A DNA stretch of 64,000 nt from Escherichia phage kaset, in the sequence record PV245935.1, one strand, 5' to 3'. The translations under genes and the position numbers were made by a program. Shown in pieces: positions 29,475 to 46,538 of the stretch. The notes beneath the pieces were generated by a model that made no database searches, had not been told where the DNA came from, and saw nothing but the letters and a program-made list of their open reading frames with translations. Position 1 is the stretch's first letter. Every line of letters begins with the position of its first letter.

Positions 29475-30998
29475 TTAATTCATCTTTTTGCCGTCGAGGA
29501 TGTGATCAGCAAGCATAGACTTCATACTTAGTGAACGCTGAATTTCTTCATCGATGGTGTCAACACCAATAAAATCAACATACAACACGCTTGATTTGGT
29601 GCCGATGCGGTGATTTCGGTCTTCGGATTGCTTGCGCAACTCGTTGTCGTAGTTGCAAGAATAATAAATTGCCAAGTCAGCGGCTGTAAGCGTGATGCCG
29701 ATGCCTGCCGCAGCAGCGTGGCAGACCAATACTTGTGTTCCACCATTCTCGACTGTGTTTTTCTGGAAGTCATCAATCAAGAACTCACGCTGCTCTTTTG
29801 ACGTTTCACCGTTGTATACACCCGTGACCACGCCTTCAGACTCAAGCCAATCCTTAATCTGGTTCATCTCTTCCTTAAAGATGGCCCAAACAATGAACTT
29901 GCGCTCTGGGTCGTCTTCCAGCACCCCTTCCACATAATCCTTAAAGGCCGTGAATCGTGGGTTGTCTTCCATGTAGACCATCTCATCATACACCTTAACA
30001 AAACCGGATGTCACCTGCTTCATCTTAGTGCGCGACGCGATCATCTCAAACTTGACGTTTTCTTCTTCGCCCTTGTATTCCATCAAATAGTTGTACTCAT
30101 TCTTGAGTTCATCGTAAACATCGCGTTGTTTAGGCGACAACTCGAAGTCAATAAACTTGTACACCTTCTCTGGAAGGTCAGGCAAGTATTCTGCTTTTGT
30201 TGCACGAAAATAGTGCGGTTCCATCAGCCGGATAAGCTTGTCAAGGTTCTTGTACATCGGTCGGCCAAACTGGTCTTTGCGCGGCACTTGCGGAATCCCA
30301 TAGCCATTGCCGCCGATTTTCTTGAGGATGGCTTGCATCTCTGGGTCGTGCGCTTCAAGCAGCACAGTGAATTCAGAGTTGAAGGCGCGGAAAGATTTGG
30401 TGCCGAGCAATCCTGCTTCAAGGAAGTGATATTGCATGTAAATATCAGCAGGCGAGCGCGGCAACGGCGTGCCAGAAAGGATTCGACGGGCCTTTGCCAG
30501 CCGTCCCAATTCCACAACCTTGATGGAGCGTTTGGCTGTGTTATTCTTGATGCGCGTTGATTCGTCGATGATCATCAGGCAGCGGTACTTCTTCAAGACC
30601 GACTCGATGTGTTGATAACCGACTGGTGTGTTGACAGTATCGATGTTGAATGAGAAGATGCGCGCAGGCACTTCGCCTTCGGGGTAGTGATCAGCAAACA
30701 TCTTCTCCCAAAGCGCCTTGCCCTTTTTAGTTTTCATCTTATCATTGCCGCGCCAGTAGTGCCCAATCCACTTGATGGAAAGGTGTTCTGGTGCTTCACG
30801 ACGAATCCAGTTTGAGTGGACGCCGTTTGGAGCGATGACGACCATGGCATCGAACGCGCCAGCGGTGAAGTGCTTTTCAAACTCTGCCAAAGCGGTCCAA
30901 GTTTTACCAAGACCCTGTTCCATAAAATAGGCAAAGTATTTTCTGCGGCCTGCTTTATCAAGCGCCAATAGTTGGTGGCGCATTCCTTGTGTTTTCAT
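29475..30998 (-). CDS. SNF2-family helicase
   Basis: Motif I GLGKT, motif II DESTRIKN (DExx box), LSGTPL motif. Confidence 0.75.
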   Translation of the reverse strand: MKTQGMRHQLLALDKAGRRKYFAYFMEQGLGKTWTALAEFEKHFTAGAFDAMVVIAPNGVHSNWIRREAPEHLSIKWIGHYWRGNDKMKTKKGKALWEKMFADHYPEGEVPARIFSFNIDTVNTPVGYQHIESVLKKYRCLMIIDESTRIKNNTAKRSIKVVELGRLAKARRILSGTPLPRSPADIYMQYHFLEAGLLGTKSFRAFNSEFTVLLEAHDPEMQAILKKIGGNGYGIPQVPRKDQFGRPMYKNLDKLIRLMEPHYFRATKAEYLPDLPEKVYKFIDFELSPKQRDVYDELKNEYNYLMEYKGEEENVKFEMIASRTKMKQVTSGFVKVYDEMVYMEDNPRFTAFKDYVEGVLEDDPERKFIVWAIFKEEMNQIKDWLESEGVVTGVYNGETSKEQREFLIDDFQKNTVENGGTQVLVCHAAAAGIGITLTAADLAIYYSCNYDNELRKQSEDRNHRIGTKSSVLYVDFIGVDTIDEEIQRSLSMKSMLADHILDGKKMN

Positions 30999-31417
30999 GA
31001 CAATTCCTCTAAATACTTAATGATGTGATGAATAGTTCCCTTCACGATTATCTCACGTTGAACGTCTGCAATATTATAACGCTTTAATTCAATCGAAGGG
31101 TGGACTAAATAAAACATCTTCTCAGAATCGACTTTAAGCAAAACAAATGATGGGTATTTCCAATCATTCCACGAAGAAAGAAAGCTGCACTGACCTTTCT
31201 CAAATGCATTTCTGAAAGGTGCAGTGGTAGCCCTTGCAGGCCACGATTCAAAGAACTTCATTTCAAGCCAAAAGCCGCGCCCTTTCCGGTTGGTGCCGAT
31301 TACATCCGGCACACCATCACCCGTCATGGATTCGATTCTTTGAAGCTTCAATACTGATTCCGAATGCTTCTTCAAAGGTACGAATATGTATTTCTGTTCA
31401 CGGTTGTTTGTTGCCAT
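30995..31417 (-). CDS. VRR-NUC / PD-(D/E)xK nuclease
   Basis: GVPDVIG ... FWLEMK motif; AGGTG RBS before ATG 31417; adjacent to SNF2 helicase. Confidence 0.6.
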   Translation of the reverse strand: MATNNREQKYIFVPLKKHSESVLKLQRIESMTGDGVPDVIGTNRKGRGFWLEMKFFESWPARATTAPFRNAFEKGQCSFLSSWNDWKYPSFVLLKVDSEKMFYLVHPSIELKRYNIADVQREIIVKGTIHHIIKYLEELS

Positions 31418-34301
31418 CTGGATACACCTGTTTGATAACGTCGACGATGAACATGTCAATGCCTTCAAGTTTGCGACCTTTCATCAGGAAGAATGCACCG
31501 TTCCCGACGTTCTCTGCAATGTACTTCCCGTACTTCTGGAACTTCTCTGGGCGAATCCTGAAACGCATTGGCGAATCGGTCGAATCGTCTTTGCACATAA
31601 GGTCGATGAACTGAGTTTCAAGCTTGTTTCCATACTGGTCAAACTCTGCGTAGCGGCCATCGGCCTGAAGACCCTTTTTAAGTTTGCCGTGCTTTGTATA
31701 AATGCCGCGCTCAAGACGTTTACGGATTCGTGTTGCTTCGTTCTCGTCTGCCAGCACTTTCTTGGTCAACTTGCCGATTACTATTGCACGCTCATCATCG
31801 CCTACTTCCTTCATCTGGCGTATTGAAGCACCGGAAGTAACGCCAATCAGATAGGGGTCATTATACGCCCAGCCGAACTTGGTGTGCATCTCTGTAAGGT
31901 CGCCGTATTTGACTTCAGCATTGGCCAATGCATCCTTTTGCTTTTGCGTTAAGGTTCCGGCTTCACGTGCTTCGATATACTTCATCGCCTTCACCATTCC
32001 GTACCCTTTAGCGTTCATGATGCCGCCGATTAGCTTTCCGTTAGCGATGGTCCAGTTCATTGAAGAGTGATCAGGGTCGATTGGCACATAATCCACGCCT
32101 TCCTTCGCAAGTTCACGTAATATCGCAATCGTCTGGTCTTCGTCCTTAGCAGCGCGTAAGCAGGCAGCGGCAAATTCCAACGGGTAGTGTCGTTTAAGCC
32201 ACAAGGTCCAGTAGGTCACGACCGCGTATGATACGGAGTGTGACTTGTTAAAGCCCCATGACCCGAACGTCGCCATCGCTTGCCAAAGCTTTCTTGCATC
32301 CGCTTCCGGTACGCCGTTATTTATTGCGCCTGCAACGAAGTCTTCGCCAAGCTTGTTAAAGTATTCCTCACCCTTACGGCCTGACATCGCCTTACGTACA
32401 GCGGATGTCTTCGCCCAGTCAAATGAACCAATCTCTTTCACCACGGCCATGATTTGCTCTTGGTAAAGAAACACGCCGTAAGTCTCTTTTAAGTACGGCT
32501 CAAGCTGCGGCACGTCGTACTCAATCGGCGCACGTCCTGCCGCGCGTTCAATGTATTTCTGGGCCATACCGGATGACAACGGGCCAGGTCGACCAAGTGC
32601 TGTCAGGTTATCGATTTTGTTAAAGTTATCAACGTGCACAAAGTTGGTTACTGAGCGTACAGCATCGCCTTCGAACTGGAAGATGCCTGACATCTTATTT
32701 TCGTTAAGGATGTCAAGGACGCTTTGATCATTGAGCTTGATTCCGTACAGCGTTTCAGCATCTATCACGCCAGTATCGGAAATTATTCCGAGTGTGCGGA
32801 GGCCCAGCGCATCAAGCTTCAAAAGGTTAAGGTATTCGCTGTCAGGCTTATCAATTTGCGCAATCCCTTCCGCCGTTACCGTACAGTAATCAGAGATTGG
32901 ATCATTACACACGATGATTCCCGCTGCGTGAACGCCAGTGTGGGAAGGGTGAATCTCAAGGTCACCCATGCATCGCGCGGCGTCAGGATATTTCGCCACG
33001 AACTCTTGGCCCGTGGTCGTGGTTGCAAAGGTATCCTCCAGGCCGTGACCATAACGGGCGTCACCGGATGAGTATTCAAGCAATGCGTTTTTAATGTTGG
33101 CCGTTTCGTGATAGCCGATGTTGAACTTCTTACCAACCTGAGCCATTACTGAGTTGGCCTTAAGCGTGTTGATGTTGCCAAGTTTTGCAACGTTCATTTC
33201 GCCGTATTTTTCTTTAAGGTAATCAAACACCATATAGCGTTTGGTATCCTCAAAGTCAATATCAATATCAGGAAGGTCGGCGCGGCTTACGTCGATGAAT
33301 CGGGCAAACAACAGCTTATACGGGATTGGGTCAACTTCCGTGATGCCGAGACAATAGCAAACCAGTGAACCAGCCGATGAGCCGCGAGCGGGTCCGACGA
33401 GCATTTTTGTCTTTGCGAATCGTACAAGGTCTGCTACCACCAGAAAGTATGAGTCGAAATCTTTCAGCTGAATCTGGTGAATCTCTTCGTTGAATCGGTC
33501 CTCATATTCCTGAGTCCATTCTTTGATGTGGCCTGCCTTGAGGCGGTACTCCATCCCCTCACGAGCAAGTTTAACCATGTCACCAGCAAGGTGAATAATC
33601 GGTGCCTTGCGCAACTTCAGGCCAAGCCCCACGATTCCGTTTGCGATATCAACAGCATTGGACGTTGCTTGATTCAACTCATCTTCGGTAAGGATTCCTT
33701 CAAGCTGTTTTCGCAAGTCTTCCGCGTCAACGATGCAATGCGGCTTAACTGTGTCGCGAACTTCCCACGCATAAGCAAAGTCGACGTGCTCAGGTGAAGG
33801 CATATGGTTGTATCCGGTTAAAACCAGCGGCCTTCCGTTGCTGCGGTGAGCCAATGCCTGGCGCTTAGCCAAAAGGAACGATGATGGGTTGACGTCTATA
33901 TAATCGTAGTCCTCTGGCAGCAGCAACTCCACGGCACCGCCACAGAATTTAACGACTCCATCGAGCGCCCCGAACTCTGCACGGGTCAGTCCGCCGCGCT
34001 GTGTTGCAAGTGTCGTAGCGTTGTAAAAAGATTTCAGGTCAAGGGCCAATATCCAAGCCTTCGGTTTGAATCCCTTTTTCGGGTCCGCATCAGGGTCAAT
34101 GATTGGAATCTCCATGCCGAACATAGGCTTGATATCATTCTTCTGACATTCCTTTTCCCAGCGAACGTGACCCCATGTATTGTTGTCAACTAATGCCGCG
34201 ACTTCGCAGCCCAACTCTTTGAGCCGTGCTATAATTTCAGGATGCCGTCCATATACTTCTTTGAACGTGTAACCGCTGCGAACTCTCAATTGTGGAAACA
34301 T
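31398..34301 (-). CDS. DNA polymerase III alpha-like (DnaE-type) replicative polymerase
   Basis: 967 aa; motif NKSHSVSYAVVTYWTLWLKRHYPLEFAAA characteristic of DnaE family. Confidence 0.8.
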   Translation of the reverse strand: MFPQLRVRSGYTFKEVYGRHPEIIARLKELGCEVAALVDNNTWGHVRWEKECQKNDIKPMFGMEIPIIDPDADPKKGFKPKAWILALDLKSFYNATTLATQRGGLTRAEFGALDGVVKFCGGAVELLLPEDYDYIDVNPSSFLLAKRQALAHRSNGRPLVLTGYNHMPSPEHVDFAYAWEVRDTVKPHCIVDAEDLRKQLEGILTEDELNQATSNAVDIANGIVGLGLKLRKAPIIHLAGDMVKLAREGMEYRLKAGHIKEWTQEYEDRFNEEIHQIQLKDFDSYFLVVADLVRFAKTKMLVGPARGSSAGSLVCYCLGITEVDPIPYKLLFARFIDVSRADLPDIDIDFEDTKRYMVFDYLKEKYGEMNVAKLGNINTLKANSVMAQVGKKFNIGYHETANIKNALLEYSSGDARYGHGLEDTFATTTTGQEFVAKYPDAARCMGDLEIHPSHTGVHAAGIIVCNDPISDYCTVTAEGIAQIDKPDSEYLNLLKLDALGLRTLGIISDTGVIDAETLYGIKLNDQSVLDILNENKMSGIFQFEGDAVRSVTNFVHVDNFNKIDNLTALGRPGPLSSGMAQKYIERAAGRAPIEYDVPQLEPYLKETYGVFLYQEQIMAVVKEIGSFDWAKTSAVRKAMSGRKGEEYFNKLGEDFVAGAINNGVPEADARKLWQAMATFGSWGFNKSHSVSYAVVTYWTLWLKRHYPLEFAAACLRAAKDEDQTIAILRELAKEGVDYVPIDPDHSSMNWTIANGKLIGGIMNAKGYGMVKAMKYIEAREAGTLTQKQKDALANAEVKYGDLTEMHTKFGWAYNDPYLIGVTSGASIRQMKEVGDDERAIVIGKLTKKVLADENEATRIRKRLERGIYTKHGKLKKGLQADGRYAEFDQYGNKLETQFIDLMCKDDSTDSPMRFRIRPEKFQKYGKYIAENVGNGAFFLMKGRKLEGIDMFIVDVIKQVYPDGNKQP

Positions 34302-34843
34302 TATTTACTCCATATGTCATATACGCCAATTTGTTGGCAGACTTTGTGCAGTAATATTACGTCGTCTAATGCACGGTGCTTCTGTTCATATTTTCCGAAA
34401 TATAATTCATACAACTCTTGAAGCTTAACTCTTCGGCCAAAAATAGGCAAGGTTTGCTCGACTGTACAAATGTTTATTTCTGGAAAATTAACATCACCAA
34501 GTGTAAGACCTTCGCGCTGTAATGCATAGTCAAGAATGTTTTTATCAAACGCATGGTTGTGCGCGATAGTTGCATCCGTCTTCTTGAATATTTCTTTTAG
34601 CTGCGGAACGAAATGAATAAATGGTGGATTGCACTCAAGGTCTTCGTTGGTTAATCCGGTAATCTTCGTGATGATTTCTTCAATCACAATTTCAGGATTA
34701 ATTATGAACTCGAACGTTTCAAGAATCTCTTTGCCGTCCGTCAACAGGCCTGCAAATTCAATAGGGCGCGGCTGCATTCCAAGCGGCGCTTTCGGGTGCA
34801 CGGTTAATCCGGTTGTTTCGAAGTCATAAGGGAGAAATAACAC
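34301..34843 (-). CDS. DnaQ-like 3'-5' exonuclease (proofreading)
   Basis: Exo motifs DFETTGL, HNHAFD, HRALDDV; immediately upstream of polymerase gene. Confidence 0.75.
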   Translation of the reverse strand: MLFLPYDFETTGLTVHPKAPLGMQPRPIEFAGLLTDGKEILETFEFIINPEIVIEEIITKITGLTNEDLECNPPFIHFVPQLKEIFKKTDATIAHNHAFDKNILDYALQREGLTLGDVNFPEINICTVEQTLPIFGRRVKLQELYELYFGKYEQKHRALDDVILLHKVCQQIGVYDIWSK

Positions 34844-34897
34844 ATTGGCCTCCTACAAAAAGGCCGCCCATTAGGACGGCCACAGATTCAAGATTCG

Positions 34898-35449
34898 TTA
34901 TGCAGTGTACGGAGTGCCGTCTTGATTCAACCGCACGATGAATTTAAGGTCTACACCGATGATTTCACGCGTATCAAAGATCACATAGTTGTAACGACGC
35001 TGACCAGCAATATTTGGGTTGGTGTGAGAGTCAGTTACGACTTCCTGCGCAACCTGAATGCCTTCTTCTTTAAAGAACTTACGCCATTCAGCAAGTTCAG
35101 CGACAGTCACGTGCATACCAAGATGGCTGACCTGATTATCGTGCGCATCGAGCATGTCGATGTTTTCGTTGATCCAGTTGCAACCTTTTGTGTAGTCAAG
35201 AATTTCAAGTTCAAGAGGCTTGCCAGCGCCGCCATCGGTGCCGTTGCCAGCCTGATAGTTGAAGCGCAAGTCAGCTTCATTGGTGCAATCGTCGCGACGA
35301 CCTTTAAATTCATCAGCTTCAAATACGCGACCAGTAGCAACAACATGATCATGGAACCATTCTGTCAGGCCGATTTTGGCCAGAAAATCCTGTGCACGCT
35401 GAGCATCTGGAATTGACAGGGCGATTTGTTCAATTTTAAAGTGTGGCAT
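34898..35449 (-). CDS. VOC (glyoxalase/dioxygenase)-like fold protein, hypothetical
   Basis: Two beta-alpha-beta-like modules (IEQIALSIPDAQRAQDFLAKIGL; HLGMHVTVAEL) judged by eye. Confidence 0.45.
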   Translation of the reverse strand: MPHFKIEQIALSIPDAQRAQDFLAKIGLTEWFHDHVVATGRVFEADEFKGRRDDCTNEADLRFNYQAGNGTDGGAGKPLELEILDYTKGCNWINENIDMLDAHDNQVSHLGMHVTVAELAEWRKFFKEEGIQVAQEVVTDSHTNPNIAGQRRYNYVIFDTREIIGVDLKFIVRLNQDGTPYTA

Positions 35450-35469
35450 TTTGTTTCCTTAATTAAATA

Positions 35470-35685
35470 TTATTGATTAATTACTGTGTTGTCTTCGTCC
35501 TGTTTCTTTTCAGGAGCGGGTGTGACAACTTCAAATTTAGGTTTGGGCAATTCACCTTTAGCACCTGGGACTTCAACGACAATCTTTTTGTCAGGCTCAA
35601 CAGGATTTGGAACTTCAAATTTGATCGTGTATCCTAATACAACAAGAAGCACTAAACCGATTACCGCTACCCAGGCTTTGTTCAT
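35470..35685 (-). CDS. Small membrane-anchored protein, hypothetical
   Basis: N-terminal TM segment AWVAVIGLVLLVVLG, Pro/Lys-rich tail. Confidence 0.5.
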   Translation of the reverse strand: MNKAWVAVIGLVLLVVLGYTIKFEVPNPVEPDKKIVVEVPGAKGELPKPKFEVVTPAPEKKQDEDNTVINQ

Positions 35686-35688
35686 GAT

Positions 35689-36372
35689 TTATTTCCCAAA
35701 TGGAATATCAGTACCAGACATAAAGCGCCATGCGCCCGTAATTAAGATATGGCGAATGAAGTCAGCAATTACTTGCGGCTCAGTCTCCAATCCATTCATC
35801 AACGCCTTTTTCTGGTATTCAGCAGCATACTCAGGAGTCCAGCCGCGAGTCGCGCAAACAGCATCTTCAATCTGTTTAGACATACCAGTGCCGCGCAACT
35901 TGTTAGGACTAATAGAGAATACCGTGATCCCGTATTTAGGCGTAAGTTCGTGGGCCATCTGCTTACTGATCATAAGCGCAGCGGCCTTGGAAGCATTATA
36001 ACACAAGCTGGACGTCATAGGAATATGCGCAGCGTTGGAAACGATATTGATCACAAAACCTTTGTTGTCGATAAGACTTTTCAGTGTCGCCTGAGTCGTG
36101 TTAACGAAAGAGAAAGCGTTGGTATGCATAACGCGGTTAAATTCTTCGTAGTTGACATCTTCAAACCAGTTGTTGGAGTTTACGCCAGCACAGTTGATCA
36201 AGCCTTCTACATCATATGGGCTTAAAATTTCTTTCATCTGTTTAGCGTCGCGGACGTCATATCCGTATGCTGAATCGATGCCAAGCACGTTATGACCGTA
36301 AGCGCCAAGGGTGTCAAAAATAGATTTACCAAGACCAGAATTGGAACCTGTTACAACAATTACTTTTTTCAT
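35689..36372 (-). CDS. Short-chain dehydrogenase/reductase (SDR) family oxidoreductase
   Basis: Rossmann motif VTGSNSGLG and catalytic YNASKAA (YxxxK). Confidence 0.7.
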   Translation of the reverse strand: MKKVIVVTGSNSGLGKSIFDTLGAYGHNVLGIDSAYGYDVRDAKQMKEILSPYDVEGLINCAGVNSNNWFEDVNYEEFNRVMHTNAFSFVNTTQATLKSLIDNKGFVINIVSNAAHIPMTSSLCYNASKAAALMISKQMAHELTPKYGITVFSISPNKLRGTGMSKQIEDAVCATRGWTPEYAAEYQKKALMNGLETEPQVIADFIRHILITGAWRFMSGTDIPFGK

Positions 36373-36437
36373 TTATTTATCCTTTTTGGACTTCGTTTCG
36401 ATGAGATAAATATAACTCATCGAAACGCACAAGTAAA

Positions 36438-37310
36438 CTATTTATTGAAATTAATATTGTGGGTGTTGACGAGACGTTCACACATGGCGCTGTAAACACC
36501 ATCATCGTGTATAGAGTCTTCGTGCTTCAGGCCGCTGATTGCGAAGCGTGTAAGCTTGACAATCTTAAGCTCGAACAGATGCCACATGTGGTAGTCTTCC
36601 GGCGTTTTCAACGTTACGCCATTAGGGAAAAGCACCTGCATAACCTGGCCAACCATCACGGCGTTATCGCCATAGACAGCGTTGCGCTCACGGAAGGTTG
36701 CCGCCATTGCATCAAGAATATCGGCGGCAGTGGCCGGAGATTGTTCAATTTCCACAGCCTTAGTCTCTTCTTGCCCTGTTGCGCTTGGATCAATTGCTAA
36801 TTGTTGCACCACTTCACCTGCCTTGCAAAGATTAAATGTAAAAGCGATTTTATTTTGAGCAACGGAATTATAATACAATGCTTCATCTTGCATCCGCGCG
36901 AGCACGTCTTGTCGGTCGTCGAATACATTGATGATTCGATAATCGCCGTGCCGCAATGCGTGCGATAGCCATGCAGATTTCATAATAGTTGATGGACGTT
37001 TGTCGCCATAGTCTCTCATCTTGATTGTAAATTCATCAAAAGGAAAAACATTGTCCAGACGTTCAAAAGTCACTTGTCTGTATTTTTCTGGCCTTGCAGT
37101 CCAATATTCAACCGCCTCACCGCGAAGAGATGCCGACTCTACTGCTGATGCAATGTGAGGATAGAACTGATCATAACCAATACCGCTGTGATAGTCATCA
37201 TAGTCTGACAACGGACCTGCCACCTTGATGCGGTCTAAGCGCCAACGGTCATCAAACAGCGTTCCGTCAAGGTCGAATACGTTTAAGATTTCGCTGTTTT
37301 TAATGCTCAT
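36438..37310 (-). CDS. HAD-superfamily hydrolase domain protein with extra C-terminal domain
   Basis: Motif I VFDLDGTLFD (DxDGT); later VFDDRQD. Confidence 0.6.
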   Translation of the reverse strand: MSIKNSEILNVFDLDGTLFDDRWRLDRIKVAGPLSDYDDYHSGIGYDQFYPHIASAVESASLRGEAVEYWTARPEKYRQVTFERLDNVFPFDEFTIKMRDYGDKRPSTIMKSAWLSHALRHGDYRIINVFDDRQDVLARMQDEALYYNSVAQNKIAFTFNLCKAGEVVQQLAIDPSATGQEETKAVEIEQSPATAADILDAMAATFRERNAVYGDNAVMVGQVMQVLFPNGVTLKTPEDYHMWHLFELKIVKLTRFAISGLKHEDSIHDDGVYSAMCERLVNTHNINFNK

Positions 37311-38152
37311 CCTTTTGATACTCCATCTTTAGCGACTGGATTGTTGGTGATTGGCATCGCACTCCAAAACTGGATGCGCAACTCTTCTTGCTGTGCCGTG
37401 GTATCCATCCAATCACGATACCAAGGGCAATGTGCTTTACCGTGACGGGGAAATGCGCACTTACCCATACCGATGCATTGCGGCTGTAGTAAAGGATTAG
37501 CCCAAGGGTGCACCTTGAGGACTTCCGCAACCATTGCACGAAATACTTCTTGATACTCGCCTTGAGTGCGCGTGCACAAGCGGTTTGACGCCATCTGCTG
37601 CAGCGTGCGCAAGTTGAACTTTGCCATGATATGCGTTTGCATATTAGAAGGCAACACGGCACGTGCATCCTGAATCTCTGCGCCAGCCGCGCGAAGTTCT
37701 TGGTATAGGGCGTCAATGGTTGCCATTGCATCATCCCACTTCTCTGCCAGCACACTTCTTTTTTCAGAGTCCCAGTATCCTTCTTCATCCTGGTCGAAAA
37801 AGTCTTTTTTACCAAGATCATCTAAACTATCAAAATCACCATCCCTTTCAAATGCCTTCGGACGAATTGCATCAAACGCAGACGACTCCTGAGCGCGGCT
37901 AGTGCGTTCTTGATATGCGCCTGTGCGTGTGCGCACCATCTGATGGGTCATGTTCTTTGAAACATCAGTGATGTCAAAGATATAGTCCACAAAGTCAAAG
38001 GGCGACTTGATTGTATCAAGCATGTAGCGCCAGTGCTCTTGCTTCTCTGATTCTGTCATCTCAGAGACAGGCTTGCCAGTCATGCGCGTGTTCTTTGTTT
38101 CCAGCAAAAGGTCAAGTGCATCTTGGGTGTATCGAATTAATTCAACTTTCAT
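37307..38152 (-). CDS. ThyX-like flavin-dependent thymidylate synthase homolog (divergent)
   Basis: ARAVLPSNMQTHIMAKFNLRTLQQM resembles ThyX ARxVLPxN...NxRSL block; RHR-like motif present as RTRTGAYQERTSR. Confidence 0.55.
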   Translation of the reverse strand: MKVELIRYTQDALDLLLETKNTRMTGKPVSEMTESEKQEHWRYMLDTIKSPFDFVDYIFDITDVSKNMTHQMVRTRTGAYQERTSRAQESSAFDAIRPKAFERDGDFDSLDDLGKKDFFDQDEEGYWDSEKRSVLAEKWDDAMATIDALYQELRAAGAEIQDARAVLPSNMQTHIMAKFNLRTLQQMASNRLCTRTQGEYQEVFRAMVAEVLKVHPWANPLLQPQCIGMGKCAFPRHGKAHCPWYRDWMDTTAQQEELRIQFWSAMPITNNPVAKDGVSKG

Positions 38153-38166: not shown

Positions 38167-38613
38167 TTAACGGTAATTCACTAATTGCTGATCACCAGAG
38201 AAGGTGCAATGATAAACGAATTGTGCGTTGTAAAGCAACTGAAAACTTTTCTTTGGTTCACTATTAGCACTCATCGATGTGAATACTTCTGCACCGGAAC
38301 GGTTTTCACCAATCAGATTGATAAAGCCGCCAGTTGAACGAGGTTGAACGAAAGTGAAACGTTGCATCCACGGAGTCCGGTTGGCACCTTTACCCGTGAA
38401 TCCTTGAATCTGAATATTCAGACCTTCTTGCTCATTCACACCGATGTAAGTGGTAATCTTCGCACCAGTCGTTGCTGCGGTCTTGCCGTCCATCGCTTCG
38501 CAATCGTAAACAGCGATTGAATCGGAAGTACGGATGGCAGCTTCAGTCGCTTCCATATACATGGTGCCGAGAATAGCAGTTGCGGCAAGCGCGATTCCAG
38601 TGATTCGTTTCAT
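38167..38613 (-). CDS. Secreted protein with signal peptide, hypothetical
   Basis: N-terminus MKRITGIALAATAILGTMYMEA; two Cys residues. Confidence 0.5.
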   Translation of the reverse strand: MKRITGIALAATAILGTMYMEATEAAIRTSDSIAVYDCEAMDGKTAATTGAKITTYIGVNEQEGLNIQIQGFTGKGANRTPWMQRFTFVQPRSTGGFINLIGENRSGAEVFTSMSANSEPKKSFQLLYNAQFVYHCTFSGDQQLVNYR

Positions 38614-38677: not shown

Positions 38678-39673
38678 TTATTTATTGGCAATATAAGCAA
38701 ATTTTTGATAGTTATTTGCTTTGATGAGTTTTTCAACTTCAACAAGGTCATGAGCGACGTCATCAAGCAAAATGTTGCGCCAGGTAGCGAATCGACCAAC
38801 ACTAAACACGTTCAAATCCATAGTCAGCTGCAGGAGTAGGGCGTGTCGCAAGTCTTTCGGAATGTCGACAATCTTGCCATATTTCTGGTCGACCTTTTCA
38901 ACTTCTTCAAGAGCAATGTCACTCCATGAAAGGCCAAAGGCCGTCAACACTTCGTCGACTTCTGCGCGAAGCTTTATGTCACGGTAACGAGTGATGCCGC
39001 CAGCGGCTTCAACTGCAGCTTCACTTACGCTGACCAAAGGAATTGTTTCAATGATAAGCGTGTCACCAGTAATTGATGCGCGGTAAGTTCTGACTGAGTA
39101 GTCAGGGAAGTAAATTGTTTGATACAACTCACACTTACGTTTAATCTTAAAGCGGTAAACACGAATGTTTGCTTTATCAAATGAGAAATCAAGCTTTTGA
39201 TCAATCCCAGCAAGCTTCAGCATGACTGGCAGCGGCGATGTGTTGATGATTGGCGTCTCGCTATAGCCGCAAAGAGTATCAACCGGAGTATTAAAGAATA
39301 TGCGGTCACCCAGTTTGTCGACAAGCTGATCATAAAAGTCATCAGGCGCAATATAACGCGTTGCAGTTTTAAGCTTCATGATTGAACGGCTGCCAAACTG
39401 ATTGGTGACCTTCATGGAATACATATTGGCAAGGTTAATTGGGCAATGGTCGTGGTAGTAGTTGCCGCGAAAATACACAGCCTTGTCAACTGTCACGGCC
39501 TTAAAGGGGATTCCGGTAATACGGCTTACTTCTTCGCCACGGAAGCGTAGCAACGCCTTGTGCTGTTGCGCCCGTTCCCCTGCTTCGTACACAATAGAGT
39601 TCGGGAAGTGACACGCTGTGATAAGTCCTGCCAGTCCGCCGCCGATAATCATTACAGGTTGTTTCATGTTCAT
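38678..39673 (-). CDS. FAD/NAD(P)-binding oxidoreductase
   Basis: N-terminal dinucleotide-binding motif VMIIGGGLAGL (GxGxxG). Confidence 0.6.
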   Translation of the reverse strand: MNMKQPVMIIGGGLAGLITACHFPNSIVYEAGERAQQHKALLRFRGEEVSRITGIPFKAVTVDKAVYFRGNYYHDHCPINLANMYSMKVTNQFGSRSIMKLKTATRYIAPDDFYDQLVDKLGDRIFFNTPVDTLCGYSETPIINTSPLPVMLKLAGIDQKLDFSFDKANIRVYRFKIKRKCELYQTIYFPDYSVRTYRASITGDTLIIETIPLVSVSEAAVEAAGGITRYRDIKLRAEVDEVLTAFGLSWSDIALEEVEKVDQKYGKIVDIPKDLRHALLLQLTMDLNVFSVGRFATWRNILLDDVAHDLVEVEKLIKANNYQKFAYIANK

Positions 39674-39805: not shown

Positions 39806-40651
39806 TTATTCCGCTTGATCACCGTCTTCGGCATCGTCGTTGGATTCAACATCGACAAACTCGATGTGGCCCATCTCTTCCAGCTTGCTCAGGTAGGAGC
39901 GAACGGAAGCGCCAAACAGTTGATCTTTAACTTTTTCGCCCAGCTCATCGATAGACTGCGCCACGCCAACTTCGCCTTCTTTGATCGCCGCTAGAACGCG
40001 TCCACGGGTGGAATGCTCTTGCGGCTGGCTCAGGCCATTGCCAGTGTAGATGAAGTGGGTTGCTTTTGCACGACGCTGACCGTTTGCCTTTTTAGCAGCC
40101 TTACGTTCTGCGATGGCTTTGCGACGTTCTTCAGCTTCTTGCTTACGCTGTTCTTTCTGCTGTTCTGCAGCTTCTTTTGCCGCAATCTTAGCAGCTTCAC
40201 GCTCTGCCTTGCGTTTCGCTTTAGCTTCTTCTTTGGCCTTCTCTTTTTCGGCCTTCGCTGCAGCACGGGCTTGATCACGCTCTGCTTTCTTAGCAGCAGC
40301 TTGTTCAGCTTTCAGGCGCTTGGCTTCTTCTTTAGCCTTTGCCTTTTCGATTTCTTTCGCTGCTTTAGCGGCTTCACGCTCTGCTTTCTTAGCAGCAGCC
40401 TTTTCTGCGCGCTCTTTGGCCTTCTTAGCTGCTTCTTCAGCACGCTTCTGAGCCTTCTCATCAGCAGCCTGCTTGCGTTTCAGTGCAGCTTCTTCACGCT
40501 TGGCTTGTTTTTCCTGCTCACGCTTCTGGCGTTTTTCTTCGGCTTCTTTCTTTTTAGCCAGGCGTTTTTCTTCAGCCACGCGACGACGTTCTGCTGCAGC
40601 TGCTTGTTTTTCTTCTTTAGATAATACTTTGATTGCTTCGGCCATGTTCAC
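39806..40651 (-). CDS. Highly charged Lys/Ala/Glu-repeat protein with globular C-terminal domain
   Basis: About 200 aa of KAE-rich low-complexity repeats (AEEKR, KAKEEAK) then acidic tail; nucleotide-level repeats gcttctttagc. Confidence 0.5.
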   Translation of the reverse strand: MNMAEAIKVLSKEEKQAAAAERRRVAEEKRLAKKKEAEEKRQKREQEKQAKREEAALKRKQAADEKAQKRAEEAAKKAKERAEKAAAKKAEREAAKAAKEIEKAKAKEEAKRLKAEQAAAKKAERDQARAAAKAEKEKAKEEAKAKRKAEREAAKIAAKEAAEQQKEQRKQEAEERRKAIAERKAAKKANGQRRAKATHFIYTGNGLSQPQEHSTRGRVLAAIKEGEVGVAQSIDELGEKVKDQLFGASVRSYLSKLEEMGHIEFVDVESNDDAEDGDQAE

Positions 40652-40804: not shown

Positions 40805-41989
40805 TTAACGCGCTTTCAAATCACGGTACACGGTCAGATTCTTTTTAGCGCGGGTGATGGCGGTGTACATCATCTTGGAGTACGGAACGCCGCGCAAGAT
40901 TTCTTCCAGCACGCACACATTGTCCCACTCGCTGCCTTGCGATTTGTGCACCGTTATGACATAGCCATAGTCCATGCCTCCAACAGCGCGTTGGGCCTCT
41001 TTGCGCACTTCCTGATCAGTAGAGAAGGAAAGAGGATTTATCTTCACCTTTATATCTTTGCCATCGGTAAGCGAGCGCAAATTGACATACATTATTTCAT
41101 TGGACTCGTCTTCATCCCTTTCAAAGTCCGGTACTGGCTCATAACTAATAACAATCCCTTGCTCGCCATTACAGAATCCTGGACCGTGTTGGTTGAATGT
41201 GCAAATAACTTTCTCGCCGATTCCTGGCATTGGCGTTATACGTCCGCTCACTTGGCGCAATAATGAATTCCATTTATCTTTGGTGCTATTATATGAGCAA
41301 ATAATTTGATCATCTTCGCCCATGAATTTCTTCAACGCAGTAACGCGCGGCGATTCAGCCAAAACCTTGACGTCATCGTATTCACGCGGAGGAAGTCGGT
41401 TGCCCTGTCGCACGAAGAAGGAAGCGCGGATTATGTTTGACTCTTTTCCTTGCCGCATGATTTCGGTTAACAGTACGTCAACGGCATCTTCAGTAAAGTA
41501 GGCGGCGGCTTTTACCGGAGGGACTTGTCCAATGTCGCCTAATGCCAGAACAGGGATGCGGTGATCAAGAAGGCGCTCTGTGTCCCACTCGCCAACCATT
41601 GAAGCTTCATCAAGGACGACAAGATGCGGCCTTTCATCAAGCGTTGACTTCCTTGCAAAGATTGGTTCATTGTCATCGTTAACGCCGCGCACGTTATAGA
41701 TGAACTGATGAAGGGTCTTAGCGCCACGACACCCTTTCTGCTTCAATCGGCTGGCGGCCTTTCCGGTCGGCGCAATATAAATGGCACCGTACTCACCGAC
41801 ACAACGGCGCACAATCTCACGCGCAATAGATGTTTTACCTGTTCCTGCATAGCCAGCGATGAAAAACACGCGCTTCGTTGTTTTACCGTCCTGCAATCGC
41901 TTGTACCATGCAACGGCCTTTTCGATGGCATCAATTTGTTGCGCGTTGAACTGAATCACTGGCTCATTATTAAATTCTGGAATGTTCAT
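40805..41989 (-). CDS. SF1B helicase, Dda/RecD-like
   Basis: Walker A AGYAGTGKT; VLDEASM (motif II); VHKSQGSEWDNV and TAITRAK (motifs V/VI). Confidence 0.7.
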   Translation of the reverse strand: MNIPEFNNEPVIQFNAQQIDAIEKAVAWYKRLQDGKTTKRVFFIAGYAGTGKTSIAREIVRRCVGEYGAIYIAPTGKAASRLKQKGCRGAKTLHQFIYNVRGVNDDNEPIFARKSTLDERPHLVVLDEASMVGEWDTERLLDHRIPVLALGDIGQVPPVKAAAYFTEDAVDVLLTEIMRQGKESNIIRASFFVRQGNRLPPREYDDVKVLAESPRVTALKKFMGEDDQIICSYNSTKDKWNSLLRQVSGRITPMPGIGEKVICTFNQHGPGFCNGEQGIVISYEPVPDFERDEDESNEIMYVNLRSLTDGKDIKVKINPLSFSTDQEVRKEAQRAVGGMDYGYVITVHKSQGSEWDNVCVLEEILRGVPYSKMMYTAITRAKKNLTVYRDLKAR

Positions 41990-42315
41990 TATAACTCCAC
42001 TACGCTTTCAAGGTCCAGATATACTGGAATAAAATGGCAATCTTCTTTTCGTTCAAACATCTCGCCGTCAACGTGACTGAAGAAGACAGTTGTGTTTGGT
42101 ATCTTCCACCCTTTCTCGTCGCGCACCAGGTACGCCATGGATTCAACAGGGATGTAAAGCGATACCGGATTCGCGGCAAAGATGAATTTGATTCTGTCTG
42201 GTTGACCCAGGAATCGCATAATTGTAAGACTTGAATTCAGTCTTGTATTAAGGAAGGACTCAACAATGCCGACGTGTGTTGCACGTTCGCGTTGCTTCGT
42301 ATCTTTTTCGTTCAT
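41989..42315 (-). CDS. Hypothetical protein
   Basis: 108 aa ORF, ATGA overlap with helicase gene. Confidence 0.5.
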   Translation of the reverse strand: MNEKDTKQRERATHVGIVESFLNTRLNSSLTIMRFLGQPDRIKFIFAANPVSLYIPVESMAYLVRDEKGWKIPNTTVFFSHVDGEMFERKEDCHFIPVYLDLESVVEL

Positions 42316-42418
42316 TTCAGGCGACCTTTGTTAGTGCGGAAATATTTTCTGATAGTATAATTGCAGATATAGTATAAAGCAAAGTAAATCGAAATTGTGA
42401 ACTAAATGGTAAATATTG

Positions 42419-42446
42419 TTGACTTTGTATCACTCAATATTATACT
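42419..42446 (+). promoter_or_regulatory. Sigma70-like promoter upstream of PrimPol gene
   Basis: -35 TTGACT (42419-42424), 16 bp spacer, -10 TATACT (42441-42446). Confidence 0.45.
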
Positions 42447-42475
42447 GCAGGTATTGATCACCGAAGGAAAGAAAG

Positions 42476-43558
42476 ATGGCTAGTTTAAGAGAAGAAGCAA
42501 AAATAATCGAAGAGTTTTTGACGGAACTCCAAAGAGGCATTCCAGAAGATGAACGCGTCATGACTGTGTTTGCGCCTGAAGCAACGGTGCAGACCGACGA
42601 GCGCGGCAAAAAGATTAACAGCAGCTTCTGGCCTAAGCCTTGGAAGCTTGGCAAGCCGCTGATGCAACATCAGAACGGTTACGCCTGCATAAGTTCAATG
42701 CGCAAGTCTCCCAACCCAAAGACAGGCGAGATGCGATACTGGCGCACGGAATCGGCTTTCGGTCATGGCATGGCAATGATGGTCGACGACATCGGACACG
42801 GTAAAGGGTCAAAGGGCGATTTAGATTTGGAGTTCTTTTTCGAGCGTCTGAAGCCAACCGTTATCGTTGAGACTTCACCGAACAACCATCAGCTGTGGTA
42901 CTTCTTTAAAGAACCGATTGACCATCTTATTCAGTTCAAAGCATTCCTTGGGTCTTTCGTAAACATGGTACTCAAGAAGGGCGGCGACAACACGATTAAA
43001 GACGTGACGCGCGTGGGCCGTGTTCCTGGGTGCATCAACAATAAGCGTGTGACTCACGACGGCCCCTATAAATATGTCGATGAGAACGGCGACCCGTTCC
43101 GCTGCCGACTTGTTCATGCAGACTATTCTTTGCGCTACACAATCGAAGAGATTTGCCAAGCATTCGGTTTCCACGTCGTTATGCCGCAAAAGCGTGAAAT
43201 TCAAATCGACGTTGACGAATACAAATATGACGCTGTTTGGTATAAGATAGCCCAGCAAATCCTTGCGCGCAATAAGATGGGCGAAGGGTCCGATGGCGAT
43301 GTGGTTGAAAACATGTCAGGTAAATGCCGCATCATCTGTCCTTGGGGTGAAGAGCACACCAACGGCGACCCATACGGCGCTTATTTTCGCGGCCCAATCC
43401 CTGGCGCTGAACATGAATTCGTTTTCGGTTGCGCTCACGACTGTCACCGGAAAGGGGAAGGCAAGAAAGGCTGGACCGCTTTTGTTGAAGCAGTAGTCAT
43501 GCCTTATATTGAGAATCAACTTGATATGATAAATCGTCGCGCAGGTGGCATAAAATAG
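42476..43558 (+). CDS. Primase-polymerase (AEP/PrimPol-like) with C-terminal Cys/His cluster
   Basis: AEP-like motifs MMVDDIGHG, SPNNHQLWYFF, RVGRVPGCINNK; CPWGEEH...CAHDCH. Confidence 0.65.
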   Translation: MASLREEAKIIEEFLTELQRGIPEDERVMTVFAPEATVQTDERGKKINSSFWPKPWKLGKPLMQHQNGYACISSMRKSPNPKTGEMRYWRTESAFGHGMAMMVDDIGHGKGSKGDLDLEFFFERLKPTVIVETSPNNHQLWYFFKEPIDHLIQFKAFLGSFVNMVLKKGGDNTIKDVTRVGRVPGCINNKRVTHDGPYKYVDENGDPFRCRLVHADYSLRYTIEEICQAFGFHVVMPQKREIQIDVDEYKYDAVWYKIAQQILARNKMGEGSDGDVVENMSGKCRIICPWGEEHTNGDPYGAYFRGPIPGAEHEFVFGCAHDCHRKGEGKKGWTAFVEAVVMPYIENQLDMINRRAGGIK

Positions 43559-43616
43559 TTTGCTTTTATTTTTCTAGCAACTATAATCATTTTATGAACT
43601 GAAGCAGAGGTGATTT

Positions 43617-43763: not shown

Positions 43764-43765
43764 AA

Positions 43766-44056
43766 ATGAACGAACCAAAAATGATGACTCCTGAAGAAGC
43801 GCAAAAACTTCGCGTGGAGAACGAGCTTAAGCTTGTCAATGAAATCCTTCCTCTGTTTAAAGGCTATGCGGTTGAAGAAGTCGTTGGCGCAATCCTTAAT
43901 GTGTCGACGCACGTGGCGATGAATCTGAATGCAGAGCGTTTCAATACTTTGCTGACGATTAACAACTTTACTGTCAGTGCAACGTTTACCGTTGAGCCAG
44001 TGAATTTTGAAGAAGCTGCAGCCGCGATTCAACAACAGCGAGATCAAGAGGTGTAG
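43766..44056 (+). CDS. Hypothetical protein
   Basis: Track ORF with ATG. Confidence 0.5.
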   Translation: MNEPKMMTPEEAQKLRVENELKLVNEILPLFKGYAVEEVVGAILNVSTHVAMNLNAERFNTLLTINNFTVSATFTVEPVNFEEAAAAIQQQRDQEV

Positions 44057-44057
44057 C

Positions 44058-44321: not shown

Positions 44322-44339
44322 ATTTAGGTATAGATACAT

Positions 44340-44444
44340 ATGAAAGCCGTAAAGAAATACACATTAATCATTTCCCTTGTTATCATCCTGGGGCTATTAT
44401 ATGTATTGGATATGGCATATTATTTGGCAGGGGTGAGTAAATGA
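44340..44444 (+). CDS. Small hydrophobic peptide (34 aa), hypothetical
   Basis: ORF MKAVKKYTLIISLVIILGLLYVLDMAYYLAGVSK; stop overlaps next ATG (ATGA); weak RBS. Confidence 0.35.
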   Translation: MKAVKKYTLIISLVIILGLLYVLDMAYYLAGVSK

Positions 44445-44731
44445 ATATTGTAATTCTTTATGGTGAGAATATCAGCGATGACGACATCGAAGTTGCCGTT
44501 GATGTTTACGGTATCGATGAGGTGAAACGTGTTGAAGAAATTAATGGCGCAAATCTTAACGAGATTGTCAAAGAAGCTGGTTGCCCTTCGGAAGAGATTC
44601 TGGTGGTTACTAACGATGACCTGTCTTCTATGGATTGTTTGCGCCGCATCTTCACCGATTGCCAATACCTTCATGCTGTTCAGTCAGTAAACAAATTGAG
44701 AAAGACATACGCTGACCAATTTCCTTGCTGA
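44441..44731 (+). CDS. Hypothetical acidic protein
   Basis: Track ORF with ATG. Confidence 0.5.
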   Translation: MNIVILYGENISDDDIEVAVDVYGIDEVKRVEEINGANLNEIVKEAGCPSEEILVVTNDDLSSMDCLRRIFTDCQYLHAVQSVNKLRKTYADQFPC

Positions 44732-44780
44732 TAGTTCACCAGTTATATTGCTTTAAACTGAGTTTTACTATATTAATATA

Positions 44781-44806
44781 CAACGCCAGATTTCTGGCGT
44801 TTATTT
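44781..44806 (+). terminator. Rho-independent terminator candidate
   Basis: AACGCCAG-ATTT-CTGGCGTT hairpin then TATTTA. Confidence 0.5.
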
Positions 44807-44867
44807 ACCGCACCCTGAAAGGATATATCCATGCAACAATATAACAAAGCCGTATCAGGAGGATTAA

Positions 44868-46538
44868 ATGTCAATTGAACATGACAATCTTCCAGAGGAT
44901 ACAGGTGATGAATTTGGTGCAATCTTTGACGAAATTCAAGATGCTGGTGTTTCAGAAGAAATGCAAGCGGCAGAGCAGCAAGGCACCAGAGCTAAAATAA
45001 GCCTTCAGCACAAGGCTGTTGAGAAAGATGCAGAGCGCATGGAATGCTACGGTGAAGAAGACTTGGTTGAAAGAGCACGTTTGCTCGCCTCACTTCAGGT
45101 AATCAAGTTCCCTCACTACAAACCGACGAAAGATGATTTTGTTCTTCAGGCGGACCGGACGAGTGACATGAACCGTTATGCGGTTTTCGACGCGTTGTTT
45201 GATAAGGGAAGCGGCATCGTCCCATTCCCTCACAAAGATACTTTTCGTGGACGCTTAGTCGACCATCGCGGCGAAACATTCACCGACCGGACATTGGAAG
45301 TCACAGAGATAGTTGCCGCTGTCGACGCAGCAGGTCTGTCCAACCCAAACTCACGTCAGGTCGCTCAATCCTATAAGGAATGGGCCATGCGTTATCAGCG
45401 CGACGACCTGATGGACTTCTTCTACAAGAAGCTGCCTGAATGGGACGGTACTGCGCGCATTGAAAAATACCTTATCGAGCTATTCCGACCGTTCGATACA
45501 GAGTTAAACCGACAAATCGGTGTGTATTTTTGGCTATCGCTCTATAACCGCCTGACCAATCCTGGCTGTCAAGCGCCAATCTCCATTGCGCTCATCGGCG
45601 GCCAGAACGCAGGGAAGAGTTATTTTAGTAAGCTGCTTTGCGAAGCTATTATGAACGACCGCCACGCAACACCGATTCCGTTGAACTTGGCCGCGCAAAA
45701 CTTCAACCCGTTCTTGCGAGCTATTACGGGTCGCTCAATTATCGCGAACGTTGGCGAGATGACAGGCTTTAAAAAGGCTGACATCGAAAACATGAAAGCA
45801 TTCCTGACTAAGACGGAAGATGACCTGGACTTCAAATTTGAAGATACGCAGGTTAAACCACGCCAGTGGATTGCTATCATGGACGGCAACGAATACGCAG
45901 GCATGCAGCGTGACGATACGGGCAACCGTCGTGTGTATCCTATCTTTGTTGGCCAACTCGCCGACAAGGACGGGCAACCGAACTGGTCTAAAGACTTCCA
46001 AGCTGACCTTTCCACTTTGAAAGAAGACGTTTGGCAGCTGATGGCTGAGTGCGCTGCGTGGATGGAGAAGCACGGCGAAGCAGGTTACAACGCCTTTGTT
46101 GGTGAAACATCTCGTATGCTTACTGAGTTCAGTAAGAACGAAATGGAACGTGCGCGCGGCGTTATCCGTGATGAGATGGTCGACAACGACCTTGTTGAAG
46201 TCATCATCACCGCGCCTTATGACCGACATCACAGCGGACGCTGGCACATCACCAGTGGGGCAATCGCTATGGGATTCAGAGCTAAGTGCGGCAAGTCGCC
46301 TTTCTCACGTACCCTTGCGCCGCACATGTCGAAGCTTGGATTTGAGCCTGCAACCTATCGCAACCAGCGTGGCTACTTTACGCCGCTGATTAAGAATGAA
46401 GCAGGGGAATACATTTCTGACTTGATGACCATCTTAGCGTATCTTATTCGCGACGAGTCTGACCCTGAAGATATTGAATTCTTGAAGAAGGTTATTGAAC
46501 GCAAACGTTCTTTAGGAAGAGATAAGGATGAATTCTGA
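44868..46538 (+). CDS. P-loop NTPase, primase-associated (VirE/D5-like helicase candidate)
   Basis: Walker A IGGQNAGKS; 556 aa; downstream of PrimPol gene. Confidence 0.6.
   Translation: MSIEHDNLPEDTGDEFGAIFDEIQDAGVSEEMQAAEQQGTRAKISLQHKAVEKDAERMECYGEEDLVERARLLASLQVIKFPHYKPTKDDFVLQADRTSDMNRYAVFDALFDKGSGIVPFPHKDTFRGRLVDHRGETFTDRTLEVTEIVAAVDAAGLSNPNSRQVAQSYKEWAMRYQRDDLMDFFYKKLPEWDGTARIEKYLIELFRPFDTELNRQIGVYFWLSLYNRLTNPGCQAPISIALIGGQNAGKSYFSKLLCEAIMNDRHATPIPLNLAAQNFNPFLRAITGRSIIANVGEMTGFKKADIENMKAFLTKTEDDLDFKFEDTQVKPRQWIAIMDGNEYAGMQRDDTGNRRVYPIFVGQLADKDGQPNWSKDFQADLSTLKEDVWQLMAECAAWMEKHGEAGYNAFVGETSRMLTEFSKNEMERARGVIRDEMVDNDLVEVIITAPYDRHHSGRWHITSGAIAMGFRAKCGKSPFSRTLAPHMSKLGFEPATYRNQRGYFTPLIKNEAGEYISDLMTILAYLIRDESDPEDIEFLKKVIERKRSLGRDKDEF

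Follow-up and report, generated by a model that had tools for sequence, protein, structure and literature searches.

Introduction

Wifcevirus phages are myophages distantly related to the Pseudomonas Pbunavirus (PB1-like) phages (PMC11990801; PMC6563267). Extremely short infection cycles have been reported for them, and the BASEL isolates Bas98-101 belong to this genus (PMC11990801). In Pbunavirus, the same suite of replication genes has been described explicitly in the report on the phage Banzai (Viruses 2025, PMC12390725, section 3.7). Here, we address the corresponding genes of Escherichia phage kaset (sequence record PV245935.1), within a stretch of 64,000 nucleotides referred to as the window, and specifically the interval 30995-46538. 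A first-pass annotation, made from the letters and their open reading frames (ORFs), had read this interval as a bacterial-type replisome suite built around a DnaE-family polymerase, a combination said to be comparatively rare among tailed phages and to define the replication strategy of the lineage.

The Replication Module and Its Relatives

The interval covers the block of DNA replication genes of an E. coli phage of the Wifcevirus type, a block that is real and already known. Twenty-seven phage records match it over at least 80% of its length, and the best matches, ECO71P1, Mansfield (MK903282), ECML-117, FEC19, vB_EcoM_WFH and Bas98-101, do so with 96-97% nucleotide identity. In Mansfield, ECML-117, FEC19, WFH and Bas98-101 the gene order and the annotations are alike and the DnaE protein is 99% identical, being 967 amino acids (aa) in length here and 965 aa there, with scattered substitutions and no functional distinction. 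The Wifcevirus records already label the alpha and epsilon subunits of DNA polymerase III, a RecD/Dda-like helicase, a RepB-type primase and ThyX, as well as a phosphatase, a short-chain dehydrogenase/reductase (SDR), a glyoxalase-family protein and a UDP-galactopyranose-mutase-like protein. We consider it very probable that the block is a conserved replication and recombination module of a virulent myophage of the Wifcevirus/Pbunavirus (Lindbergviridae-like) type, with nucleotide-metabolism genes interleaved. With annotations of the module in 25 or more near-identical genomes and its equivalent in Pbunavirus already in print, the finding adds little by itself.

The Pbunavirus module of Banzai has in common with the present one, and in the same order, the alpha-like polymerase, epsilon-like exonuclease, Holliday junction resolvase, SNF2-like translocase, Dda-like helicase, the primase, the self-loading helicase of the Staphylococcus aureus pathogenicity island (SaPI) type, the ligase, MazG, ThyX, the HAD phosphatase and the flavoprotein (PMC12390725). 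Pbunavirus PA5 and 14-1 also have this gene order, with protein identities of only 27-64%, and to this extent the suite does characterise the lineage. There are differences as well. The Pbunavirus DnaE is about 1035 aa long, and the relative that was aligned, P0102 (1036 aa), has an insertion after the fingers domain. In comparison with 14-1, the window has extra SDR and VOC genes and is without homologs of 14-1 ORF68-71.

The claim of comparative rarity agrees with the counts. A DnaE-like gene is found in 1413 of the 50,697 phage records (2.8%), mainly from phages infecting Pseudomonas, Mycobacterium, Streptomyces, Gordonia and Bacillus, while relatives covering at least 80% of the 967-aa DnaE are found in 372 phage records. 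The polymerase, the 140-aa nuclease and the 331-aa flavoprotein of the module co-occur in about 360-372 phage records. A metagenome-scale search with the DnaE protein returned more than 6000 homologs, the closest 120 of which lie mostly on contigs of about 60-74 kb. It is fair to say that phages bearing DnaE are comparatively rare, yet form a well-populated and well-annotated class.

Layout of the Replication Genes

The gene map was built from the ORF listing and from profile searches (Pfam, PHROGs). The features assigned to replication and recombination are as follows.

29475..30998, minus strand: SNF2-family ATPase/translocase, 507 aa (Pfam SNF2-rel_dom 8.6e-22, Helicase_C 5.8e-11)
30995..31417, minus strand: predicted PD-(D/E)XK nuclease, most like RecU/Hjc resolvases, 140 aa (motif and modelled fold)
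31398..34301, minus strand: DnaE-type family C DNA polymerase, 967 aa (Pfam, PDB, NCBIfam and alignment)
34301..34843, minus strand: DEDDh 3'-5' exonuclease (DnaQ/epsilon-like), 180 aa, catalytic domain only
40805..41989, minus strand: SF1B helicase (Dda/RecD2-like), 394 aa (Pfam AAA_30 2.5e-22, UvrD_C_2 6.3e-13)
42316..42475, no strand: intergenic region from which the leftward and rightward replication operons diverge
42476..43558, plus strand: RepB'-type (AEP-fold) DNA primase, 360 aa (Pfam RepB_primase 1.6e-36)
44868..46538, plus strand: VapE/D5-type P-loop NTPase, 556 aa (Pfam VapE-like_dom 1.6e-28, Walker A GGQNAGKS)

Two operons diverge from 42316-42475, the rightward one with the primase and the VapE-like protein, and the leftward one running from the Dda-like helicase through SNF2. 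Within the leftward operon, the stop of the exonuclease gene and the start of dnaE overlap by 1 nt (TAATG), the last 20 nt of dnaE overlap the start of the nuclease gene, and the nuclease stop and the SNF2 start overlap by 4 nt (ATGA), all as read from the sequence. Because these stops and starts overlap, the exonuclease, dnaE, nuclease and SNF2 genes form one tightly coupled unit. Further downstream, Bas98 has genes for a MazG-like pyrophosphatase and an ATP-dependent ligase.

Every gene type named by the first-pass annotation exists, with profile matches well above what chance would give; about half of the interval, however, encodes proteins outside the replisome. The replication proteins account for only about 7.8 kb of the 15.5 kb, the rest being ThyX, HAD, SDR, VOC, the flavoprotein, a Lys/Ala/Glu-rich protein and small ORFs. 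The SNF2 helicase placed in the suite is likewise present, at a position outside the interval, which starts at 30995.

A Family C Polymerase with a Separate Proofreader

The identity of the 967-aa protein is carried by several profiles. The Pfam domains DNA_pol3_alpha (3.1e-63; 214.3 bits, cut-off 23.9) and DNA_pol3_finger (1.7e-37; 128.8 bits, cut-off 22) are matched strongly, and PHP marginally (8.4e-6; 26.7-29.4 bits, cut-off 26.4). Against solved structures (phmmer), the Taq and E. coli Pol III alpha subunits are matched at about 1e-84 and M. tuberculosis DnaE1 at 2e-78. The protein passes the NCBIfam superfamily model TIGR00594 (473.7 bits, cut-off 434.35). None of the NCBIfam equivalogs of bacterial DnaE is passed, the best being PRK05673 with 493.8 bits against a cut-off of 1002. 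The profiles thus place the protein in the family C polymerases and not in a non-polymerase family, and the motif on which the DnaE assignment had first been based is present as GFNKSHSVSYAV. In the near-identical Bas98, the annotation holds a single DNA polymerase and lacks any family A or B enzyme.

For residue-level comparison, the phage protein was aligned with 17 clade members and E. coli DnaE (19 sequences; MAFFT). The phage DnaE is 30% identical to E. coli DnaE, and the catalytic Asp triad D345, D347 and D497 (E. coli D401, D403 and D555) is invariant in all 19 sequences. The layout comprises a degenerate PHP domain (about residues 1-240), the palm, thumb and fingers (about 243-790) and a lineage-specific C-terminal region (about 800-967).

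The metal ligands of the PHP domain have a nine-position consensus, H H D/H H E H C/H D/N H, with E. coli showing R10, H12, D19, F44, D69, H83, G134, D201 and R203 at these positions (Barros et al. 2013, Table 1, PMC3666897). In the alignment, the phage protein has R6, R8, E15, N40, E64, G77 (K81 if ungapped), G122, H166 and P168. Intact ligands, which the first-pass annotation had named as a point to check, are therefore not found; only E64 is canonical, while E15 and H166 are near-canonical, giving at most 1-3 of nine. This points to a "variant" PHP, predicted not to bind metal and more degenerate than that of E. coli (1-3 against 4 of nine ligands). Because the PHP has lost its metal ligands, proofreading would be carried out by the separate epsilon-like exonuclease. 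In bacteria, the loss of PHP ligands accompanies a separate epsilon (PMC3666897), and the degenerate PHP together with the epsilon-like exonuclease fits this bacterial pattern, here in a phage lineage.

The adjacent DnaQ-like proofreader of the first-pass annotation is borne out. The exonuclease is matched by Pfam RNase_T (1.6e-21; 77.9 bits) and by phrog_192, "DNA polymerase exonuclease subunit" (1.9e-37), and its intact DEDDh motifs DFETTG, HNxxFD and HRALDD align to those of the PolC exonuclease 2p1j and E. coli epsilon. The residues are D6 and E8 in Exo I, D99 in Exo II, and H156 and D161 in Exo III (H162 and D167 in E. coli epsilon). At 180 residues, the protein stops directly behind Exo III, and its alignment to E. 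coli epsilon reaches position 174 of 243.

Several observations on the polymerase C-terminus stand beside these results. Residues 660-967 have no Pfam match. MAFFT placed the C-terminus opposite the E. coli OB region, and a homology to the OB or tau-binding domains was considered and set aside, as neither hhalign nor Pfam supports it; we treat the region as a lineage-specific domain. It is conserved in the clade (residues about 800-967, 31398-31900, minus strand), and in several relatives it is prolonged by an acidic tail such as AEDYIYAEETYAE. Two metagenomic clade members have about 250 additional residues, namely P0115 (1232 aa) and P0095 (1215 aa). A precomputed Pfam match to the intein-splicing domain PF14890 is on record for P0115 and not for P0095, which suggests that the P0115 polymerase carries an inserted intein.

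Processivity and the Reduced Replisome

In comparison with the E. coli Pol III core, the phage pair has in common the family C catalytic core with its Asp triad, a "variant" PHP and a separate DEDDh proofreader. The phage, however, has no recognisable genes for theta, beta or the clamp loader, its exonuclease is without the epsilon tail, and its DnaE is without the clamp-binding motif and without a detectable OB-fold or tau-binding domain. A sliding clamp, clamp loader, DnaB, DnaG and single-stranded DNA-binding protein (SSB) are all missing from the complete annotation of Bas98, and neither a clamp nor an SSB turned up when the larger early ORFs without annotation were scanned with PHROGs. 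Since no clamp, clamp loader or SSB is recognisable, the term "bacterial-type replisome" is overstated: it holds for the alpha and epsilon homologs, whereas the helicase and primase are of the type found in plasmids and phage-inducible chromosomal islands (PICIs), and the other components are of plasmid, PICI or phage type.

Family C polymerases normally need beta for processivity, and a phage lacking a recognisable clamp or clamp loader might be expected to borrow them. In such a scheme, the DnaE-exonuclease pair would not be self-sufficient and would join the host beta clamp and clamp loader as a hybrid replisome. The sequence comparisons speak against this arrangement, though. The region aligned to QADMF (920-924), the internal clamp-binding motif of E. 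coli, is deleted in 18 of 18 clade members examined, and a regular-expression search of DnaE and the exonuclease for Qxx[LMIV]F or Qxx[LMIV]xF gave no match. For the C-terminal 190 aa of the clade DnaE, hhalign gives a probability of 0.2% against E. coli alpha 860-1160, which amounts to no similarity. Judged by sequence, the tau-binding domain is absent from the phage DnaE, and an OB fold is not detectable by Pfam or hhalign. A hybrid replisome is a tentative possibility on the unlikely side.

The same lack of clamp and tau modules, together with the failure to pass any DnaE equivalog cut-off beyond the superfamily model TIGR00594, could also be taken to mean that host Pol III performs the bulk of replication, with the phage protein acting in repair or error-prone synthesis as an accessory, DnaE2-like polymerase. 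Against this, the NCBIfam DnaE1 model (494 bits) scores above the error-prone DnaE2 model (330 bits), and both above PolC (44 bits). The dnaE gene is translationally coupled to a proofreading exonuclease, sits among the primase, helicase and ligase genes, and is a core gene of a large clade of virulent phages, while ImuA/ImuB-like partners were not seen. We regard an accessory role as very improbable, and return to the pair as the core of a replication module encoded by the phage.

Primase, Helicases and the Putative Origin

The rightward operon supplies the proteins that would begin replication. The primase matches RepB_primase over residues 40-237 (126.4 bits, cut-off 24.3), has a Cys/His-rich C-terminal region (CRIICPWGEEH ... 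CAHDCH), and is 60% identical to PA5 gp050 and 64% to 14-1 ORF72. An AEP-type primase-polymerase had been proposed for this gene. The AEP-type primase stands and the "PrimPol" part is unsupported, as a Pfam scan at E<=0.01 gave only RepB_primase and no Prim-Pol family match. The assignment to this Pfam family places the protein with RSF1010 RepB', yet the direct similarity to the latter is weak (phmmer E=0.4).

The Walker A NTPase of the first-pass annotation is confirmed as a VapE-like protein of the VapE/D5-type (SF3-like) helicases (100.1 bits, cut-off 25), with GGQNAGKS at residue 244 and a match to PDB 7pds (4e-11), a VapE-like structure deposited with 6 chains. Its closest known counterparts include the SaPI/PICI Rep (VapE-like) helicases. 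The Pbunavirus ortholog has been read as a SaPI-type self-loading helicase and likely initiator (PMC12390725), and the present protein is a candidate self-loading replicative helicase/initiator. In comparison with RSF1010 RepB' and the SaPI/PICI Rep proteins, the primase and helicase here belong to a lytic phage, each with a gene of its own, and are accompanied by a family C polymerase that the phage itself encodes.

The SF1B helicase was correctly called. In addition to AAA_30 and UvrD_C_2, it matches the structures of RecD2 (3e1s, 2.5e-15) and T4 Dda (3upu, 4.5e-6), with the Walker A motif GYAGTGKT. The SNF2 protein is nearest to the Sulfolobus SNF2/Rad54 structure 1z63 (3.5e-21), followed by the INO80 and CHD1L remodellers.

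Between the operons, the region 42316-42475 has a sigma-70-like promoter, TTGACT-16-TATACT, at 42419-42446 on the plus strand, and the cumulative GC skew of the window has its minimum at about 42 kb (2-kb resolution profile). Neither iterons nor ssi-like repeats were found near the divergent region or the primase and helicase genes, where the search gave only short two-copy matches. The near-repeated elements GATAGTATAA and ATATAGTATAA are also located in 42316-42475.

A Predicted Holliday Junction Resolvase

The 140-aa ORF next to SNF2 had been called a VRR-NUC nuclease, and this label is rejected. The ORF has no match to VRR_NUC (PF08774) or any other Pfam family at E<=5 and no PDB sequence match, and its modelled fold is nearer to RecU/Hjc. 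It does have an invariant PD-(D/E)XK pattern (E29 ... P37-D38 ... E52-x-K54 ... Q76). The homolog search gave only six close relatives, and the structure model is built on a five-sequence alignment. The model shows a restriction-endonuclease-like fold, for which the fold search prefers the RecU/Hjc Holliday junction resolvases. The protein looks like a predicted Hjc/RecU-type resolvase of the PD-(D/E)XK class. The sequence QKYIF at its N-terminus was considered as a clamp-binding motif and attributed to chance, as about 2 matches are expected across the module by our own estimate and the motif is absent in the PA5 ortholog.

A Working Scheme for Replication

The components suggest the following scheme. 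Transcription probably diverges from 42316-42475, and the VapE-like protein would melt an origin near the divergent region and serve as the replicative helicase. The RepB'-type primase would prime synthesis, and DnaE with the exonuclease would act as a two-subunit core replicase, synthesising and proofreading, while the ligase would seal nicks and Okazaki fragments. Dda, SNF2 and the resolvase would aid recombination-dependent replication and debranch concatemers before packaging. The processivity of the polymerase could come from the host beta clamp, from the lineage-specific C-terminal domain or from coupling to the helicase.

Several points weigh against this reading. The functions of the module proteins are predictions from sequence and structure models. 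The exonuclease, aligned to E. coli epsilon, has no counterpart of the alpha-binding C-terminal tail, and because this tail is lacking a physical DnaE-exonuclease complex is deduced from gene coupling alone. The nuclease model is of only moderate confidence (pLDDT 67, five-sequence alignment). The absence of a clamp and SSB is an absence of profile matches only, which is not proof. The origin is placed solely by the GC-skew minimum and the divergent transcription, with no iterons, and GC skew can simply mirror the direction of transcription.

Metabolic Enzymes within the Module

Between the exonuclease and the Dda-like helicase, the leftward operon carries the following genes for metabolic enzymes.

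34898..35449, minus strand: VOC/glyoxalase-fold protein, 183 aa (weak Pfam Glyoxalase_4, 0.004; Mansfield annotation)
35689..36372, minus strand: SDR (FabG-like), 227 aa (Pfam adh_short 5.9e-31)
36438..37310, minus strand: HAD-superfamily phosphatase of the PNKP type, 290 aa (Pfam HAD_PNKP 5.4e-8, N-terminal 142 aa)
37307..38152, minus strand: divergent ThyX homolog, 281 aa (Pfam Thy1 2.7e-30)
38678..39673, minus strand: FAD-type (GxGxxG) flavoprotein with a UDP-galactopyranose-mutase/protoporphyrinogen-oxidase fold, 331 aa, a clade core gene

The ThyX homolog has the motif RTRTGAYQERTSR in place of the expected RHRxxSxxxxSxR, with the changes H to T, S to A, S to T and Y to A in the alignment to T. 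maritima ThyX. It reaches 75.2 bits with the NCBIfam thyX model, under the cut-off of 87.9, and may still be an ordinary dTMP synthase. The C-terminal half of the HAD phosphatase (residues about 190-290) is a separate conserved region with no Pfam match, and the Pbunavirus ortholog of the protein is 14-1 ORF57. The fold of the flavoprotein was assigned from a structure model. In PDB sequence searches only the GxGxxG segment aligned, and such sequence-level matches were rejected as evidence of the fold.

None of the 14-1 ORFs corresponds to the stretch 34898-36372 with the SDR and VOC genes, for which no Pbunavirus counterpart was found. The SDR gene is labelled a moron/auxiliary metabolic gene in Bas98. 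Both genes look like lineage-specific metabolic genes and not parts of the replisome.

A Possible Role in DNA Modification

The DNA of the Pbunavirus phages F8 and 14-1 carries a sugar-type hypermodified thymidine at TG sites, amounting to about a quarter of T, for which no genes were identified (PMC12191111, a 2025 preprint). Wifcevirus isolates are reported to resist restriction-modification (RM) systems without a known means of protection (PMC11990801). These reports raise an alternative for the middle third of the module, namely that ThyX, the HAD phosphatase, the flavoprotein, SDR and VOC are a DNA-hypermodification pathway that merely shares the replisome operon. The atypical ThyX motif and the nucleotide-sugar mutase fold of the flavoprotein, a clade core gene, are in its favour. 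A comparison of F8 with 14-1, which have different adducts, adds to this, as identity is 92-99% for most proteins of the module but only 79% for the HAD phosphatase, which is among the most divergent. The most divergent gene of that comparison, however, is ORF70 (56%), which has no homolog in the window. In 14-1, ORF70 encodes 434 aa (6820-8124 of the 14-1 sequence compared), and the Pfam matches of ORF69-71 are uninformative. Moreover, ThyX and the phosphatase are ordinary nucleotide-supply genes, TG specificity implies a sequence-reading enzyme acting at the DNA level while none of these proteins shows a DNA-binding domain, and a modification of Wifcevirus DNA is itself an assumption. We judge a separate hypermodification pathway unlikely.

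A more specific form of this proposal is that the divergent ThyX, the PNKP-type HAD phosphatase and the UDP-galactopyranose mutase (UGM)-fold flavoprotein, with SDR and VOC, make a sugar-type thymidine hypermodification in Wifcevirus DNA akin to that of F8 and 14-1. ThyX and UGM both use a covalent flavin-N5 iminium intermediate. The flavoprotein could act in a ThyX-like manner, passing a sugar carbon, instead of a methylene, to C5 of a uracil nucleotide. By our own mass arithmetic, the 362 Da adduct equals deoxyuridine plus a tetrahydroxypentyl group, which is consistent with the transfer of a sugar carbon. This specific pathway is, in our estimation, quite improbable, and the reading that we favour remains a replication and recombination module with interleaved nucleotide-metabolism genes.

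Neighbouring and Unassigned Genes

The remaining features of the module are one protein of unusual composition and several small ORFs.

38167-38613, minus strand: 148-aa ORF with no assignment (ORF listing)
39806..40651, minus strand: Lys/Ala/Glu-rich protein, 281 aa (phrog_4765 1.5e-84)
41989-42315, minus strand: 108-aa ORF with no assignment (ORF listing)
43766-44056 and 44441-44731, plus strand: two 96-aa ORFs among several small ORFs (ORF listing)

The Lys/Ala/Glu-rich protein consists of about 190 residues of this composition, followed by a globular domain of about 90 aa and the acidic tail DDAEDGDQAE. It adjoins Dda in Pbunavirus too (homology to PA5 gp057, 1e-20), is named "TolA protein" in some records, and might bind DNA or replisome proteins. 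The two 96-aa ORFs were considered as paralogs and rejected as such, showing no similarity to each other, and the second (orf96b) shows no similarity to PA5 gp051, an annotated primase.

Beyond SNF2, the ORF 27611-28471 (minus strand) matches Pfam Pam3_Gp34 (4e-86). The ORF adjoining it (region 27611-29088, minus strand) has 14-1 ORF52 as its counterpart, and ORF52 is matched by the Pam3 gp33-like family DUF7307. This Pam3-like pair sits between the SNF2 gene and the MazG and ligase genes, on the same strand as the replication genes.

Implications of the Module

A family C replicase pared down to alpha and epsilon, without recognisable clamp, tau or OB modules, represents a compact system for asking what processivity requires. 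The non-replisome enzymes encoded within the module, which go beyond the claims of the first-pass annotation, are testable candidates for the thymidine hypermodification pathway of a therapeutically important phage family. If the sugar-type hypermodification were true, the module would be a combined "replicate and modify" unit, and this would account for the RM resistance of Wifcevirus phages.

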